Source: Escherichia coli (lineage in GTDB: Bacteria; Pseudomonadota; Gammaproteobacteria; Enterobacterales; Enterobacteriaceae). From it: a stretch of 64,000 bases of DNA. Location of the stretch: the NCBI RefSeq assembly GCF_003334785.1, contig NZ_QOWV01000003.1. One strand, written 5' to 3'. A model generated the notes under the pieces. That model made no database searches, had not been told where the DNA came from, and was given only the letters and a program-made list of their open reading frames with translations. The position numbers and the translations under genes were made by a program. Positions 18,959 to 48,972 of this stretch are shown here, piece by piece (within the stretch, counting starts at the first letter, position 1; each line of letters begins with the position of its first letter).

Positions 18959-19220
18959 GCCTGATGCGACGCTTGCCGCGTCTTATCAGGCCTACGCCAG
19001 ACAGCGCAATAGCCTGATTTAGCGTGATTTTGTAGGTCGGATAAGGCGTTTATGCCGCATCCGACATCAACGCCTGATGCGACGCTTAACGCGTCTTATC
19101 AGGCCTACGCCAGACAGCGCAATAGCCTGATTTAGCGTGATTTTGTAGGTCGGATAAGGCGTTTACGCCGCATCCGACATCAATGCCTGATGCGACGCTT
19201 GCCGCGTCTTATCAGGCCTA
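18959..19220. repeat. BIME: tandem array of REP-containing units (period about 113 bp, about 2.3 copies)
   Basis: Unit GCCTGATGCGACGCTT..CGCGTCTTATCAGGCCTAC...GTAGGTCGGATAAGGCGTTTA.GCCGCATCCGACATCAA repeats at 18959, 19072 and 19185. Confidence 0.9.
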
Positions 19221-38869: not shown

Positions 38870-40005
38870 CAGAACACCCTTTTACCCTGACGCCAGACGT
38901 GGTCGATATGAATATGATTGTCCTTGCGATGCGCCAGCACCAGGTCGGCGCGTTTGCCCTCGCCAATCACCCCGCGATCCTGGAGATTAAGCGCCTGCGC
39001 TGGATTTTTAGTCACCAGCTTCACCGCCTGCGGCAGCGTAAAGCGGTTGCTCTGGTCATCGGCGACGCGAAATGCCGCATCGAGCAGGCTGGCGGGGTAG
39101 TAGTCGGAAGAGAGGATATCCAGCAGGCCAAGCTGCGCCAGTTCACTGGCCGCCACGTTGCCGGAGTGCGAGCCGCCGCGCACAATATTCGGCGCGCCCA
39201 TCAGCACGTTCATGCCATGCTTGCGCGAGGCTTCCGCCGCTTCGAACGTGGTGGGAAATTCGGCGATCACGCTGCCAAGCTGGTGAGATTCAGCAACGTG
39301 GGCGTGGGTGGCGTCATCGTGGCTGGCAAGCGCAATTTTTCGCGCGCGGCACAGGGCGGCGATGGATTCGCGATTCGGCTGCGACCAGCGTGCGGCGAGC
39401 GCCAGTTGCTCTTCTTCGTACTGCTGCATCTGCGCATCAGTGAGGGAGTATTTGCCCTGATAATATTCGCGATACTTCTTGCGGTTGGCGAACTGGCGCT
39501 GGCCCGGCGAGTGGTCCATCAGCGACACCAGCGTCACCGGCTCGCGCTGCACCAGTTTTTCAAACAGCGGCAGCGTGGTGTGATGCGGCAGTTCGCAGCG
39601 CAGATGCAGACGGTGCTCGGCGCGGTTGACGCCGCGTTTCTGCGTCTCTTCGATGGCGTTGATCATCTTCTCCAGATTCTCCAGCCGATCGCCGCCGTCG
39701 CGCACGTCGCCAATTGCCACGGCATCCAGTACGGTGGTGATGCCGCTCGCCACCATCAGCGCGTCGTGGCTGCTCATCGCCGAGTGGGCAGGCCAGTCAA
39801 CTTTCGGGCGCGGGGTGAAGAATTTATCCAGATTATCGGTATGCAGCTCAATCAGCCCCGGCAGCAGCCAGCCGCCTTCGCCGTCCATCGCCTCCGGCAG
39901 GCGGCTCTGGCTTTCGGCAAAGGCGCGGATTTCGCCGTTCTGCACCTCCAGCGAACCGCTTACCACCTCGTTTTCCAGCACCAGCTTAACGTTATTGATA
40001 ATCAT
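38869..40005 (-). CDS. phnM: RPnTP diphosphatase PhnM (amidohydrolase superfamily)
   Basis: 378-aa [11 protein letters not shown] metal-binding motif. Confidence 0.93.
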
Positions 40006-40682
40006 GAAGAGGCTCCCATTGGGTGCAGGCGGTCGGCGACGTCATTACGTACAGCTTCGTCATGGAAGATGCCTACGATGGCTGCGCCACGGGTTTTGGC
40101 TTCGCGAATCAGTTCCACCACCGCGGCGCTGTTTTTGGCGTCCAGCGAGGCGGTAGGTTCGTCAAGCAGCAGAATGGGGTAGTCGACGATAAAGCCGCGG
40201 GCGATGTTGACGCGCTGCTGTTCGCCACCGGAAAATGTCGATGGTGCCAGGTGCCACAGGCGTTCCGGCACGTTCAGGCGGGTGAGAAGACGCGCGGCTT
40301 TAGCGGCGCAGGCTTCACGCGGAACGCCGGTATCGAGCAGCGGCTGCATCACCACTTCCAGTGCTGAGATACGCGGGATGACGCGCAGAAACTGGCTCAC
40401 CCAGCCGACGGTGGTTTTGCGGATTTCCACCACTTTGCGCGCTGGCGCGGTGACCAGGTCTACCCACTCGTCACCGTGTTTGATCTGGATTTGACCTTCG
40501 TCGGGCAGATAGTTGGCGTACAGCGAGCGTAGCAGAGTTGATTTGCCGCTGCCGGAATGGCCGTGGAGCACCACGCATTCGCCCGCGTTGACGGTGAGCG
40601 AGGCGCGATTGAGGACGGGCAGGCGCACGCCGTTTTGCTGGTGCAGGATGAAGGTTTTACTGACGTTTTGTACGTTAATCAT
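40002..40682 (-). CDS. phnL: C-P lyase system ATP-binding protein PhnL
   Basis: Start at [11 protein letters not shown] (226 aa); Walker [10 protein letters not shown]. The longer track ORF runs into the REP element. Confidence 0.9.
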
Positions 40683-40703
40683 TTTTCGCCTCGTGGTTCG
40701 GGT

Positions 40704-40788
<85 letters not shown>

Positions 40789-40792
40789 CGGC

Positions 40793-41551
40793 TCAATTCT
40801 GCAAAACCGATGACACCAGCAGCTGTGTATACGGATGATGCGGGTCGTCGAGCACGCGGTCGGTTAACCCACTCTCCACCACTTGCCCCTGCTTCATCAC
40901 CAGCAAACGGTCCGCCAGCAGGCGGGCGACGCCTAAATCATGGGTGACAATCACCACCGCGAGGTTCAGCTCCACCACCAGGCCGCGCAGCAGGTCGAGC
41001 AGGCGGGCCTGCACCGACACATCCAGCCCGCCGGTCGGTTCATCCATAAACACCAGCTTCGGATGCGTCACCAGGTTGCGGGCAATCTGCAAACGCTGCT
41101 GCATACCGCCGGAAAAGGTGGTCGGCAGGTCGTCGATCCGGTTGGCGGGAATCTCCACCTCTTCCAGCCACTTCTGCGCGGTGGCACGAATATCGCCGTA
41201 ATGACGTGCCCCGGTCGCCATCAGCCGCTCGCCGATATTGCCGCCCGCCGACACCTGGCGGCGCAGGCCGTCGAGTGGATGCTGATGCACCACGCCCCAT
41301 TCGGTACGCAGCAGGCGACGGCGGTCGGCCTCGCTCATTGCATACAGCGAACGGTTCTCGTAGTGAATTTCCCCCTGCTGCGGCGTCAGGCGCGCGGAGA
41401 TCGACTTCAGCAGCGTGGTCTTCCCGGAGCCGGATTCCCCGACAATGCCCAGCACTTCCCCCGGCCATAAATCAAAAGAGACATCGCTAAAGCCTTTGCC
41501 CGGCGCGTAAAGGTGGGTCAGGTTATTGACCGAAAGTAACGGTTGATTCAT
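40793..41551 (-). CDS. phnK: C-P lyase system ATP-binding protein PhnK
   Basis: Start at [15 protein letters not shown] (252 aa); Walker [10 protein letters not shown]. Confidence 0.9.
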
Positions 41552-42393
41552 TGGTTTTTTGCCTCGCTCTGTTGGCGGCAATAATCGGTATCGGAGCAGA
41601 CAAACATGCGGTTTCCGGCGTCATCCAGCACCACTTCATCAAGATAGCTGTGGGTCGATCCGCAGATGGCGCATGGCTCATCCCACTGCTGAACGGTGAA
41701 CGGGTGATCGTCGAAATCGAGACTTTCCACGCGGGTAAACGGCGGCACCGCATAGATGCGCTTCTCGCGCCCCGCGCCGAACAGTTGCAGGGCGGGCATC
41801 ATGTCCATTTTTGGGTTATCGAATTTCGGGATCGGCGACGGGTCCATCACGTAGCGCCCATTTACCTTCACCGGATAGGCGTAGGTGGTGGCGATATGAC
41901 CGAAGCGGGCGATATCTTCATACAGTTTCACCTGCATCACGCCGTACTCTTCCAGCGCGTGCATGGTGCGGGTTTCCGTTTCGCGCGGCTCGATAAAGCG
42001 CAGCGGCTCGGGGATTGGCACCTGGAAGATAATTATCTGATCTTCGGTCAGCGGCGTTTCGGGGATGCGGTGACGCGTCTGGATAACCGTCGCATCGTCC
42101 GTACGTTCCGTGGTGTTTACCCCGGTCACGCGCTTGAAGAAGTTGCGAATCGACACGGCGTTGGTGGTGTCATCCGCGCCCTGGTCAATCACCTTCAGCA
42201 CGTCGCTTTCGCCAATCACGCTGGCGGTAAGCTGAATGCCGCCGGTTCCCCAGCCGTACGGCATCGGCATCTCGCGCCCGCCAAACGGCACCTGATAACC
42301 GGGGATCGCCACCGCTTTTAAGATGGCGCGGCGGATCATGCGTTTGGTCTGCTCGTCGAGGTAGGCAAAGTTGTAGCCGCTCAGATTAGCCAT
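41548..42393 (-). CDS. phnJ: C-P lyase catalytic subunit PhnJ (radical SAM-like, 4Fe-4S)
   Basis: Start at MANLSGYNFAYLDEQTKRMIRR (281 aa); C-terminal CxxCx..C cysteine cluster (CAICGS...CSDTDYC). Confidence 0.9.
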   Translation of the reverse strand: MANLSGYNFAYLDEQTKRMIRRAILKAVAIPGYQVPFGGREMPMPYGWGTGGIQLTASVIGESDVLKVIDQGADDTTNAVSIRNFFKRVTGVNTTERTDDATVIQTRHRIPETPLTEDQIIIFQVPIPEPLRFIEPRETETRTMHALEEYGVMQVKLYEDIARFGHIATTYAYPVKVNGRYVMDPSPIPKFDNPKMDMMPALQLFGAGREKRIYAVPPFTRVESLDFDDHPFTVQQWDEPCAICGSTHSYLDEVVLDDAGNRMFVCSDTDYCRQQSEAKNQ

Positions 42394-43450
42394 GGTTCTG
42401 CTCCTGTTGCAGACGTTTGAGTAGCTCCAGTTCGGCCTGGAAATCGACGTAGTGGGGGAGTTTGAGGTGTGAGACAAAGCCTGCGGCTTCGACGTTGTCG
42501 GCATGTGCCAGCACGAACTCTTCATCCTGCGCCGGGCCTGTCGCGTGCTCGCCGTACTCCGGGGCTTGCAGAGCGCGGTCGACCAGCGCCATCGCCATCG
42601 CTTTGCGCTCGCTCATGCCGAACACCAGCCCGTAGCCGCGCGTGAAGTGCGGCGGCTCACCCGGCGGGTCGATAAAACCGTTAACCATTTCACACTCAGT
42701 CATCAGCAGTTCGCCGACGTTCACCGCAAATCCCAGCTCTTCCGGCACAATCGACACGTCGATATAGCCGCTGCGGATCTCGCCTGCGAACGGGTGATTG
42801 CGCCCGTAACCGCGTTGGGTGGAGTAGGCCAGCGCCAGCAAATAGCCTTCGTCGCCGCGCATCAACTGCTGCAAACGGGAGGAGCGTGAGCAGGGGTAAA
42901 CCGGCGGCGTGCGGGTGATGTCATCCGGCTGTGCGCCGCTATCCTCTTCAAACTTCGCCAGCCCCTGACGCGCCAGCAGGCTGAAAACGTGCGGCGACGG
43001 CTGCTGTTCGCTGTCGGCGGTGGTCAGCGTCGGCGCTTCGCCGTTTGCCAGCAGGGTAAAATCGAGCAGGCGATGGGTGTAGTCGTAGGTTGGGCCAAGC
43101 AGCTGGCCGCCGGGAATGTCTTTATAAACGGCGGAGATACGGCGTTCGAGACGCATCCCGGTGGTGTCGAGCGGCTCGCTTACCGCCAGCTTCGCCAACG
43201 TGGTGCGGTAGGCGCGCAGCAGGAAAATCGCTTCAACGTTATCGCCGCTGGCCTGTTTCAGCGCCAGCGCCGCCAGTTCGCGGTCGGCAATGCCGCCTTC
43301 GGTCATCACGCGATCTACCGCGAGGTTAAGCTGCTGTTCAATCTGGGCGACGCTCAGTTCGGGCAAATCGGTATCGCCTCGGCGTCGGCTCTCTTGCAGG
43401 GCGTGGGCGGCGTCGATCGCCTTCTCGCCCCCTTTCACGGCAACGTACAT
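42386..43450 (-). CDS. phnI: C-P lyase core complex subunit PhnI
   Basis: Start at [18 protein letters not shown] (354 aa). Confidence 0.9.
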   Translation of the reverse strand: MYVAVKGGEKAIDAAHALQESRRRGDTDLPELSVAQIEQQLNLAVDRVMTEGGIADRELAALALKQASGDNVEAIFLLRAYRTTLAKLAVSEPLDTTGMRLERRISAVYKDIPGGQLLGPTYDYTHRLLDFTLLANGEAPTLTTADSEQQPSPHVFSLLARQGLAKFEEDSGAQPDDITRTPPVYPCSRSSRLQQLMRGDEGYLLALAYSTQRGYGRNHPFAGEIRSGYIDVSIVPEELGFAVNVGELLMTECEMVNGFIDPPGEPPHFTRGYGLVFGMSERKAMAMALVDRALQAPEYGEHATGPAQDEEFVLAHADNVEAAGFVSHLKLPHYVDFQAELELLKRLQQEQNHG

Positions 43451-44034
43451 CAGCACACCTCCACATGAGTGGTTCGCGGAATAGCCAGCAGGCGCTCGCC
43501 ACAGGTCAGGATCAGGTCGATGCCGAGCGGGAACGGATGCGGGCGCTCGGTGAGTTCGTGCAGAATGCACTCCGGCAGCTGCGGAGCGATCATTCGTTCT
43601 TCGGCAATACCCGCACCAGTAAGGCGCAACATGCGTCCGCCGCTCAGGCTGGCGACCTGTAAAATCAGCGTCGCACCCGCTTCCGGCGCAACGGCGGTGC
43701 CGGTGGAAAGGGCGTTGAGCTGTTCGCTGGAAATCGCCTCATCCGTCACCGCGAAGGTCGCCTGTTCCGGCTGGCTGACCAGCGGCGCGTTGGTATGAAA
43801 ACGCAGGCTCTGGTTGACGATATCGTTATTTAATGGGGTAGAAAGCCACACCGGCGTGTCGTTATCGGCCAGCGTCAGCAGCACGCTGGTGGTGGCGATA
43901 TTCAGCGGTTGCCAGCCGCGTTTGAGCTGATGCAGGGCGACAATCACGCCCGGCTCGCTCATGGCCTTTAACAGGCGACGAAAACTGTGCTGGGCATCCT
44001 GCACGGGAAGCATAAAAGCGGTTTCCAGGGTCAT
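43450..44034 (-). CDS. phnH: C-P lyase core complex subunit PhnH
   Basis: 194-aa ORF, start overlaps phnI. Confidence 0.92.
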
Positions 44035-44483
44035 GCGTTGTCTCCGCGAACCATCGTAAAGAAGTCGACCCGGCTGGCGTTCACTTCGGCCTGGCGTGCG
44101 GCAATGCGTGCCATACGGTCAGCGTCCAGCGGGGCAATAAGGGTTTCTGATAAGTTTTGAAAGTGGCGAGATTGCTGCATCAGCGCGTCAATCAGCGCGC
44201 AGCGTTCGGCGTGCTGTTTATCACGCCCCTGCACCCAGCTGTAGCCGAGCGTGCCGTCAGTCAGGCGCACGGCGGCGCGGGTCAGCGTGGCGTCGCCGGC
44301 AAAAAAACGTTCGCCGGTGCCGCCCATCCGCGCCTGAATCTGTACCAGGCCAGTTTCAGCGGCGCGGATCACCTCATAGTCGGCGGTGATGTTTAGCGCG
44401 TTCAGGCGTGCTGCCAGTTCAGCCGGTTGGCTGTGCGCCAGCACGGACATCCAGTGCTGGCGGGTCGCGGTATCTGCGTGCAT
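44031..44483 (-). CDS. phnG: C-P lyase core complex subunit PhnG
   Basis: 150-aa ORF overlapping phnH. Confidence 0.92.
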
Positions 44484-45209
44484 TCAGTGCTCCATAGTGA
44501 ATTCAATCATGTCGGCGCGCGTCAGGCTGACGGAGTACTCCGCCGGGCTGCTTTCACCGTCACGGTGGTTAAGGGTGCGCACGCACAGCAGCGGCGACAT
44601 ATTCGGGATTTCAAGACGCTGGCACTCTTTGGCCTGGGCGCGGCGGGCGCTGATCCGCGTCTGGCTGCGGCGCAGCGCAATTCCGGTTTGCTCGCGCAGA
44701 AAATCGTGCAGCGAGCCGCTGTCGAAGCGTTGCAGCGTCGGCCAGAGGGTGAGGTCCGCGAAGTAGTGGTCGATTAAACAGAGCGCGACGCCGTTGACAC
44801 GACGCAGGGTGCGCAGGTGGATGACGTTCTCCCCCTCGGTAATCCCCAGTGCGTCAGCGACGTGGCCGGACGCGGGGCGCAATACCGAAAGCAGTTTTTC
44901 GCTGGTGGGATGGCTGCCCTGATCCAGCAGATTCTGGCTAAAACGCGCCTGGGCGTTGAGCGGGTAATCGAACGGGCGCATCAGCACCAGCACGCCGACG
45001 CCCTGACGGCGCTGTACCCAGCCTTTTTCCACCAGTTGGTCGATGGCGCGGCGCAGGGTGTGGCGATTCACCTCAAAGCGCGCTGCCAGTTGCTGCTCGG
45101 CGGGAAGATAGTCGCCGCAGCGGTAGTGTTGACGAAGCTCCTGCTCAAGTTTTGCGGCTATCTCTTGATAGCGTGTTGGGTAGCTGGTCGGATGTGTAGA
45201 CAAGTGCAT
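44484..45209 (-). CDS. phnF: GntR-family transcriptional regulator of the phn operon
   Basis: Start at MHLSTHPTSYPTRYQEIAAKLEQEL (241 aa); GntR-type HTH with UTRA-like effector domain. Confidence 0.88.
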   Translation of the reverse strand: MHLSTHPTSYPTRYQEIAAKLEQELRQHYRCGDYLPAEQQLAARFEVNRHTLRRAIDQLVEKGWVQRRQGVGVLVLMRPFDYPLNAQARFSQNLLDQGSHPTSEKLLSVLRPASGHVADALGITEGENVIHLRTLRRVNGVALCLIDHYFADLTLWPTLQRFDSGSLHDFLREQTGIALRRSQTRISARRAQAKECQRLEIPNMSPLLCVRTLNHRDGESSPAEYSVSLTRADMIEFTMEH

Positions 45210-45229: not shown

Positions 45230-46017
45230 TCAGATAAAGTGCTTACGCAACCGTTGAGAGAGGAAATCCAGCAGGCTGACCGTGACGATGATAAGCACCA
45301 TCAGGGCGCAGGTTTGTTGGAACTGGAAACCGCGAATCGCTTCCCACAGGGTGACGCCGATCCCGCCTGCGCCGACCATGCCGACGACGGTCGCCGAGCG
45401 GACGTTGGATTCGAAGCGATAGAGGGAGTAGGAGATCAGCAGTGGCATCACCTGTGGCAGCACGCCGTAGAGGATCTCTTCGAGCTTGTTGGCACCGGTG
45501 GCGCGAATGCCTTCCACCGGGCCGGGTTCAATCGCTTCCACCGCTTCGGAAAGCAGCTTGGAGAGCACGCCGGTGGTGTGGATAAACAGCGCCAGCACGC
45601 CAGCACGCCAGCGAACGGGCCGAGGCCGACGGCGACCACGAACAGCATGGCGAAGACCATTTCGTTAATGGCGCGGCAGGCGTCCATCAGGCGGCGAACG
45701 GGCTGGTAAACCCACCACGGCACCAGGTTTTCGGCGCTCATCAGGCCAAAGGGGATGGAGAGAACCACCGCCAGCGCGGTGCCCCAGACGGCGATTTGCA
45801 GCGTGACGGCCATTTCGGTGAGGTAATCCTGCCACTGGCTGAAATCGGGCGGGAAGAAGTCGGCGGCGAACGTCGCCATGTTGCCGCCGTCTTTGATCAG
45901 CGTAAGCGGGGCCATTTCCGCGCCCTGCCACGAGACGACCAACACGGCGAGTACAACGGCCCAGCTCAGAAGCGAGAACCAGCTGCGCTTGGGTGGGGCG
46001 ATGGTGATGGTTTGCAT
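45230..46017 (-). pseudogene. phnE: Phosphonate ABC transporter permease PhnE, frameshifted by an 8-bp tandem duplication
   Basis: N-terminal ([23 protein letters not shown]...) and C-terminal halves lie in different frames; GCCAGCAC GCCAGCAC tandem copy at 45591-45606; span 788 nt = 780 + 8. Confidence 0.9.
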
Positions 46018-46030
46018 GTTTGGCTCCGGT

Positions 46031-46120
46031 CTGTAGGCCGGATAAGGTGCTTGCACCGCATCCGGCATCAACGCCTGCACATTGTCGGATGCGACGCCGG
46101 GGCGTCTTATCCGACCTACG
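46031..46120. repeat. REP element pair between phnD and phnE
   Basis: GTAGGCCGGATAAGGTGCTTGCACCGCATCCGGCA and GTCGGATGCGACGCCGGGGCGTCTTATCCGACCTAC. Confidence 0.85.
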
Positions 46121-46122
46121 AT

Positions 46123-47139
46123 TTACTGCACCGCTTTACTCACCGAACTCATCGCGCTTAGCGCGTTGTTCAGGCGGTCCAGGTCATCCAGCTGCGCCTG
46201 AATCTCGGTGGTTTTTGCCAGCTTGTCCTGCTCATTCAGTCCTTTATTGCTTTTCACGCCCTGCATCTCTTTAAACAGCGCGAGCTGGCGAATCGGCACC
46301 AGTTGCAGGTCGCTGGAAGCGCGGAATGGCGCCCAGCCCAGGCGTTCCAGCACCGCTTTTTCTTCCGGCGTTTTGCCGTAGTTCATAAAGAAGTCGTAGA
46401 TCTTGTCTTTGGTGGTTTCGGAAAGATTCTTGCGCCAGACGATCGGATCGCCTGGGATCAGCGGCGACTTCCAGATCACCTTCAGTTCTTTCAGCTTCTC
46501 TGGCGCGGAGGTTTTCAGCTTGTCGAGGTTTTCGGTGTTGTTGGTGGCAACATCCACCTGCTTGTTGGCGACGGCCAGCGCGTTGGTTTCATGCCCGGCG
46601 TTGACGGTGCGCTTGAAGTCGCTGGCGGAGATATTGTTTTTGGCGAAGACGTAGTAGCCGGGGACGAGGAAGCCAGAGGTGGAGTTAGGATCGCCATTGC
46701 CAAAGGTGAGATCTTTCCGCTTCGCCAGCAGATCGTTCAGGTTGTTGATCGGACTGTCTTTGTTGACGATCAACACGCTCCAGTAACCCGGCGATCCATC
46801 CGCCGCGACCGTCTGGGCGAAGACCTGGCCATTGGCGCGATCCACCGCTTCCATCGCCGACAGATTGCCGTACCAGGCGATATCCACTTTATTGAAGCGC
46901 ATCCCCTGGATAATGCCCGCGTAGTCCGGGGCAAAGAAGGCGTTGACCTTCACGCCCAGCTTCTTCTCCATATCCTGCAAGAACGGCGTCCATTGCGGTT
47001 TCAGGTTTTGCTGTGATTCCGTTGAAATAATGCCGAAATTCAACGCCTTTTCCTGCTCTTCGGCGTGCGCCGGGCTTAACAGGGTGCTGAGGCTGAACAT
47101 GCTGGTGAAGGCCAGCGAGGCAATTATCTTAGCGTTCAT
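46123..47139 (-). CDS. phnD: Phosphonate ABC transporter periplasmic binding protein
   Basis: 338-aa ORF with signal peptide MNAKIIASLAFTSMFSLSTLLSPAHA. Confidence 0.95.
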   Translation of the reverse strand: MNAKIIASLAFTSMFSLSTLLSPAHAEEQEKALNFGIISTESQQNLKPQWTPFLQDMEKKLGVKVNAFFAPDYAGIIQGMRFNKVDIAWYGNLSAMEAVDRANGQVFAQTVAADGSPGYWSVLIVNKDSPINNLNDLLAKRKDLTFGNGDPNSTSGFLVPGYYVFAKNNISASDFKRTVNAGHETNALAVANKQVDVATNNTENLDKLKTSAPEKLKELKVIWKSPLIPGDPIVWRKNLSETTKDKIYDFFMNYGKTPEEKAVLERLGWAPFRASSDLQLVPIRQLALFKEMQGVKSNKGLNEQDKLAKTTEIQAQLDDLDRLNNALSAMSSVSKAVQ

Positions 47140-47163: not shown

Positions 47164-47952
47164 TCAGGCAGCTTTCGCGTTCTCTTCGACGCGGTTAATG
47201 CTGCGGTAGAGATGGTCAAAACGTTCGTTATCAAACTGTTGGCTGCTGCCGTCGTAGAAGACGTGCCCCTGGCGCAGGGCGACGATGCGTTCGCAGTAGC
47301 GCAGGGCGTAATCCACCTGATGCAGCGTGACGACCACGGTGATGCCGTCGTTCTGGTTGATGTCGCGCAGGGTGTCCATCACGATGCGCGCTGATTCTGG
47401 GTCCAGCGAGGCGATGGGTTCATCGGCCAGAATCACTTTCGCCTGCTGCATCAGCGCACGGGCAATCGCCACACGTTGCTGCTGGCCGCCGGAGAGGGTG
47501 GAAACGCGCTGATGGGCAAAATGCACCATGCCAACGCGGGTCAGCGCCTGTAACGCGCGCTGTTTCTGCTCGCCGGTGAACCAGCTAAAACAGGTGCGCC
47601 AGAACGGCGTGCTGCCGAGCGCGCCAATCAGCACGTTCTCCAGTACGCTCAGGCGGTTCACCAGGTTGAATTGTTGGAATATGTAGCCGGTATGGGCGCG
47701 GCTTTTGCGGATATCGCGGGCCAGGCGGCCTTCGCGCTGGACTGTGCGGCCCAGCAGCTCGATATGGCTACCGACAGATTTATCGCCGGTAATCAAACCG
47801 CTTAAGTGACGTAAAAGGGTGGATTTTCCGGAACCCGACGGCCCAAGCAGAGCCACCATTTCACCGTGATGAATGTTCAGATCAACCGCATGCAGCGCCT
47901 GATGCTGATTGAAGGTTTTGGCGAGCTTCTCGACACGGATAATCGTTTGCAT
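47164..47952 (-). CDS. phnC: Phosphonate ABC transporter ATP-binding protein
   Basis: 262-aa ORF; Walker [10 protein letters not shown]; first gene of the phn operon. Confidence 0.95.
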
Positions 47953-48528: not shown

Positions 48529-48592
48529 GATGGTGACCTCAGTTAAGAGAAGCCAGTTAAGTGTAGTTCGAAATTTATACAGATGAGAGGCG

Positions 48593-48972
<380 letters not shown>

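Follow-up and report, generated by a model that had tools for sequence, protein, structure and literature searches.

The window analysed here, a stretch of 64,000 nucleotides, carries the phn operon on its minus strand in the order phnC-phnD-phnE-phnF...phnP, according to both its open reading frames (ORFs) and the RefSeq annotation of collinear records (Table 1). Within this operon, phnE is divided between two minus-strand ORFs (45448-46080 and 45230-45598), both of which were found as the sequence-only reading had listed them, and the RefSeq annotations of MG1655 and of natural isolates alike label it "frameshifted". We took the ATG at 46017 as the start of phnE, following the NCBI annotation. 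The MG1655 reference gene model is longer, with a start at 46068 that extends the ORF into the phnD-phnE spacer (46020-46120), inside which REP-like palindromic sequence is found. Beyond the other end of the operon, yjdP, annotated as a DDRRRQL repeat protein, contains a 21-bp in-frame tandem repeat at 36838-36920.

Table 1. Position, strand and main characteristics of phnE, its fragments, the tandem array and the neighbouring phn genes (window coordinates)
Feature	Position	Strand	Remarks
phnC, ATPase of PhnCDE transporter	47164-47952	-	Intact, upstream of phnE
phnD, binding protein of PhnCDE transporter	46123-47139	-	Intact, upstream of phnE
phnE, phosphonate ABC transporter permease, frameshifted	45230..46017	-	788 nt; minus one unit 780 nt, 259 aa
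N-terminal product of the three-copy allele	45448..46017	-	189 aa: about 141 PhnE residues plus out-of-frame tail; stop codon 45448-45450
8-bp tandem array	45590..45613	- (gene)	Coding strand CGCTGGCG TGCTGGCG TGCTGGCG, CDS nt 405-428
C-terminal ORF	45230..45598	-	122 residues in correct PhnE frame; first possible start is a GTG within the array
phnF to phnP (regulator, C-P lyase, accessory genes)	37131..45209	-	All intact, downstream of phnE

A short tandem array lies at codons 135-143 of PhnE. On the plus strand, positions 45585-45620 read AACAG CGCCAGCA CGCCAGCA CGCCAGCG AACGGGC, and in the register CGCCAGCA the array consists of two perfect units followed by CGCCAGCG. Shifted by one position, GCCAGCAC is present at 45591-45598 and again at 45599-45606, followed by the near-copy GCCAGCGA, which is the tandem duplication that the sequence-only reading had claimed. 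Tandem Repeats Finder placed the repeat at 45590-45612 with a period of 8, 2.9 copies and 100% matches. No period between 4 and 15 gave a longer run anywhere in the window than these 15 consecutive lag-8 matches, and none of 40 block shuffles came up to it (maximum 13). The coding strand of the intact gene already contains 1.9 copies of this unit. By frame arithmetic, the in-frame copy numbers are 2, 5, 8, and 11, and all others are out of frame. The array is thus an intragenic tandem repeat with a unit of 8 bp, a length that cannot be divided by three, as is typical of contingency loci.

Removing one unit in silico, whichever of the units was taken, yielded the single 780-nt ORF of 259 codons that had been anticipated. 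The restored protein matched the PhnE profile TIGR01097 in one stretch (profile positions 8-251 of 252) with 311.5 bits against a curated cutoff of 216.7, and the two fragments as they stand scored 127.7 and 176.5 bits (profile positions 8-133 and 131-251, respectively), both below this cutoff. The restored protein also contains one complete BPD_transp_1 domain (PF00528; residues 88-258, E = 5.6e-26), and given the position of the array within these residues, the frameshift cuts the gene in the middle of the permease domain. In addition, two-copy strains encode exactly this 259-aa protein, annotated as intact PhnE (WP_001193500.1). The homology to intact PhnE permeases on which the earlier interpretation depended is therefore borne out by both the profile and the identical protein. 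Translation of the C-terminal ORF at 45230-45598 is hypothetical.

The array was further supposed to match the cryptic phn allele of K-12, and it is indeed identical to that of MG1655, with three units at the same phnE site; gene, site and units are all those of phn(EcoK0). Within phnE, the window differs from MG1655 by one synonymous SNP at 45527 (T in the window and C in MG1655; GAA vs GAG, Glu161). Relative to phn(EcoB) or phn(EcoK+), the functional two-copy allele of E. coli B, most isolates, and K-12 revertants, the window has one more unit and hence is out of frame, and after removal of a unit its 259-aa product is identical. The window is not identical to MG1655 4,277,214-4,341,213: compared with the K-12 genome NC_000913.3, two REP arrays and several SNPs differ across the window, which is otherwise collinear with MG1655. 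Because of these differences, we consider the allele to be of K-12 type without the genome being K-12 itself; judged by its sequence, the strain is not MG1655 but a very close relative, carrying an allele that is already known. One of the two arrays, with a 113-bp REP unit repeated in tandem, lies between gltP and yjcO (18959-19220); the window has 2.3 copies of this unit, and MG1655 has three units (339 bp) more. The other, a 100-bp REP-like array between yjdN and yjdM (48592-48971), has 3.8 copies, with two more units (200 bp) in MG1655. The position of yjdM shifts in steps of about 100 bp among the compared strains, indicating that the latter array is another variable-number repeat.

Previous reports connect the three-copy allele with a phenotype. 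Stasi et al. 2019 (PMC6469041) describe the phosphonate system of K-12 as cryptic through an 8-bp insertion in phnE, and phnE revertants as arising by spontaneous slippage and being easy to select, either with phosphonate or by limiting phosphate. In the revertant sequenced in that study, GCTGGCGT was lost through the indel GCGCCAGCA->G, at position 4,322,802 of MG1655. Since window and MG1655 coordinates coincide across 19230-48590, this indel can be placed at 45589-45597 of the window, exactly at the array. Similarly, in Moreau and Loiseau 2016 (PMC4759930), the phnE+ change is called frequent and ascribed to slippage between direct repeats, and evolved strains with the 8-bp deletion are described. 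The allele names used here follow Hove-Jensen et al. 2012 (PMC3463581), and in work citing Makino 1991 and Iqbal 2004 the 8-bp tandem repeat of the K-12 allele is counted as three copies instead of two. With respect to the sequence-only wording of "two copies plus a near-copy", the repeat is real, but the literature counts the same array as three copies versus two. Restoration of the gene by loss of 8 bp is documented in silico and by a sequenced revertant found in both RefSeq and the literature. Together, the data support the earlier reading as correct and the allele as a textbook one.

We are highly confident that phnE is turned off by one extra 8-bp unit gained through slippage, and that unit loss turns it on. 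In the mechanism we propose, slipped-strand mispairing during replication would add one 8-bp unit, which puts the gene out of frame midway through the permease domain and leaves a truncated product of 189 aa. In the PhnCDE phosphonate/phosphate ABC importer, PhnE is the membrane permease, so that with PhnE truncated there would be no transporter and phosphonates would not be taken up (OFF, three copies). Loss of any one unit, again via slippage, would yield the 259-aa protein (ON). Replication slippage is the probable molecular mechanism, and the early stop might possibly be polar on phnF-P as well. For switching rates, for the phenotypes Phn- and Phn+ and for how 8-bp-deletion revertants are selected, we rely on the published literature. 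The proposal of a reversible switch for phosphonate uptake therefore draws on the repaired frame, the site of the revertant and natural two-copy alleles, with the phenotypes taken from published work.

To place this allele among E. coli genomes, its relatives and the copy number of the tract were surveyed. Over 50 kb, the chicken isolate Z1323CEC0003 aligns to the window without gaps and with 9 mismatches, and is closer to it than MG1655 is; perfect matches over 25 kb came from chicken and donkey isolates. Three or more copies were found in 1,012 of 5,426 complete E. coli genomes (18.7%), using a 40-nt query without any 28-mer common to two-copy genomes. Longer queries of 127-151 nt were set aside for the final count because their identity bands mix partial matches and divergent haplotypes. 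The 40-nt query hit 1,027 places, of which 3 were on plasmid-labelled records, and a few genomes had up to 3 places. Among 58 evenly sampled carriers, at least 42 (roughly 70%) had a natural host or environmental source, including humans, dog, cat, pigs, cattle, poultry, pigeon, deer, oil palm, seawater, sediment, and wastewater, with genome sizes of 4.46-5.4 Mb, and about 13 to 16 were laboratory K-12 derivatives. A perfect four-copy allele was detected in 12 genomes, seven copies in one (bovine isolate OkiPb01713), and ten copies in one (human isolate 2013C-4974); the latter two have the same flanks, which diverge from the window by 2.4%. All alleles with more than two copies (3, 4, 7, and 10) were out of frame, with no in-frame five- or eight-copy allele seen among them, and neither one-copy nor in-frame five-copy alleles were seen on the haplotype of the window in the E. 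coli genomes searched. In this census, about 99.5% of the K-12-like lineage was OFF. The literature searched contained no report on the natural distribution of the allele or on tract variation in wild E. coli, which does not prove that such a report is absent.

A search with the restored gene recovered two copies on the K-12-like phnE haplotype in five records only, namely ETEC1732 and ETEC1734 from pigs, the hospital isolates Z217-2 and Z217-4, and a Sao Paulo MG1655 that is very probably the revertant described by Stasi et al. The next-closest two-copy alleles show 6 differences across 843 nt of the gene. In ECONIH4, the nearest other two-copy allele compared, all six substitutions are silent and the protein is the same, and the flanks are about 2% different. 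To compare haplotypes, variable sites were taken over 11,250 bp at 12 loci. ETEC1732 (two copies) and MG1655 (three copies) share the derived SNPs 39480C and 41246T, and the window and Z1323CEC0003, each with three copies, have other bases at these two positions. Over the same 11,250 bp, TB4019 (four copies) is identical to Z1323CEC0003 (three copies). The four-copy state occurred on at least four backgrounds, represented by TB4019, by VR50 with SW071611, by EF7-18-51 with YZ22PE244, and by 200112. Among the 12 local haplotypes, which belong to a group differing at <0.1% of non-recombined sites, at least six changes in copy number took place. These repeated changes, together with the existence of alleles with 2, 3, 4, 7, and 10 copies, indicate that the tract varies in wild E. 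coli too, with OFF predominant in that lineage. Sister isolates keep one state (ETEC1732/1734, Z217-2/-4, three SW0716xx isolates, and TB4019/TB4328), which suggests that natural switching is slow enough for stable inheritance.

Other changes near the array were also seen in the compared genomes. EF7-18-51 and YZ22PE244 are K-12-like through phnE and have a divergent haplotype from phnD rightward (window 46645 onward), a pattern that resembles a recombination breakpoint immediately upstream of phnE. In YZ22PE244, with four copies, phnJ and rdcB (locus 4419-5264 and 14928-15806) are also annotated as containing internal stops, which suggests that the phn operon may have decayed further in that one lineage. 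In at least two genomes, an 83-bp deletion adjoining the array has occurred between the 10-bp direct repeats GCGAACGGGC (window 45611-45620 and 45694-45703). In SCPM-O-B-9504, this deletion is combined with a three-copy array (+8 -83 = -75 nt) and the frame is restored, giving a 234-aa product without 25 residues that is annotated as an intact CDS (WP_152952806.1). The same 83-bp deletion in 2014C-3011, which has two copies, causes a frameshift.

Several other explanations for the array were weighed against these data. Short repeats are in principle open to miscalling, and the extra unit might then be a sequencing or assembly artefact. We found nothing specific in support of this, and with the array recurring in 1,012 independently assembled complete genomes and repeatedly confirmed by sequencing in the literature, its probability is vanishingly small. 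It is also very improbable that phnE is a decaying, irreversibly dead pseudogene and not a switch. The RefSeq flag of a frameshifted pseudogene and the internal stop in phnJ of the four-copy YZ22PE244 would fit such decay, but the restored protein equals intact PhnE, none of the six substitutions separating it from the nearest other two-copy allele changes an amino acid, the remaining phn genes in the window are all intact, and both laboratory and natural two-copy derivatives exist on the same haplotype. Finally, the allele could be a laboratory-domestication mutation peculiar to K-12, since the abstract of Iqbal 2004 reportedly has the phnE inactivation as apparently unique to that strain. 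The window itself is not MG1655, however, its best 25-kb matches are the chicken and donkey isolates, and most of the sampled carriers come from animals, humans or the environment; genome sizes and SNPs likewise argue against these isolates being contaminating K-12. We therefore regard an origin by domestication as most unlikely.

A more difficult question is why OFF prevails. It may be actively selected in the lineage, for example if PhnCDE is costly or imports harmful compounds, and not just inherited from a founder. The near-complete OFF state of K-12-like genomes and the out-of-frame length of every allele other than two copies would be expected under such selection, and the OFF form reportedly re-accumulates by re-insertion once selection is removed. 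The same pattern, however, is predicted if the change occurred once, in the founder of a young and successful clade, and slippage is rare, and the alleles other than three copies that could be sampled are few, so we consider active selection for OFF possible but rather doubtful. Likewise, the OFF frequency of about 99.5% is explained equally well by an adaptive switch and by a frameshift that is for the most part fixed, with slippage now and then.

Returning to a switch by gain and loss of one unit, phnE can be compared with the contingency loci of Neisseria, Haemophilus, and Campylobacter. These likewise have an intragenic repeat with a unit that is not a multiple of three, in which gain or loss toggles the frame, and their copy number is polymorphic among close relatives, as in the phnE array, where it changed among otherwise near-identical genomes. 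Unlike in those loci, the phnE unit is long (8 bp) and its copy number very low (2-3). Moreover, phnE is a metabolic transporter gene, whereas the loci in those genera are surface or restriction-modification genes, and its states are stable among sister isolates, suggesting lower switching rates. As a tentative reading, the array in phnE may be a contingency locus that operates in nature and not a K-12 laboratory curiosity, OFF in about 19% of complete genomes, which are mostly wild isolates belonging to one widespread lineage, with the OFF state maybe selected there against PhnCDE activity.

For the biology of E. coli, the allele accounts for the failure of K-12-type strains to grow on phosphonates and for the sweeps of phnE+ revertants in phosphate-starved or transporter-deleted cultures, and it has a bearing on experiments with phosphonate, phosphate, fosfomycin or glyphosate uptake. 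As a by-product of this work, the "K-12" OFF allele emerges as common in wild E. coli and the tract as a natural variable-number repeat. About one fifth of complete E. coli genomes, the majority of them from clinical, animal or environmental isolates, are predicted to be Phn- by the three-copy phnE frameshift, and in genomes of this kind automated annotation consequently calls phnE a pseudogene, though one slippage event can reactivate it.
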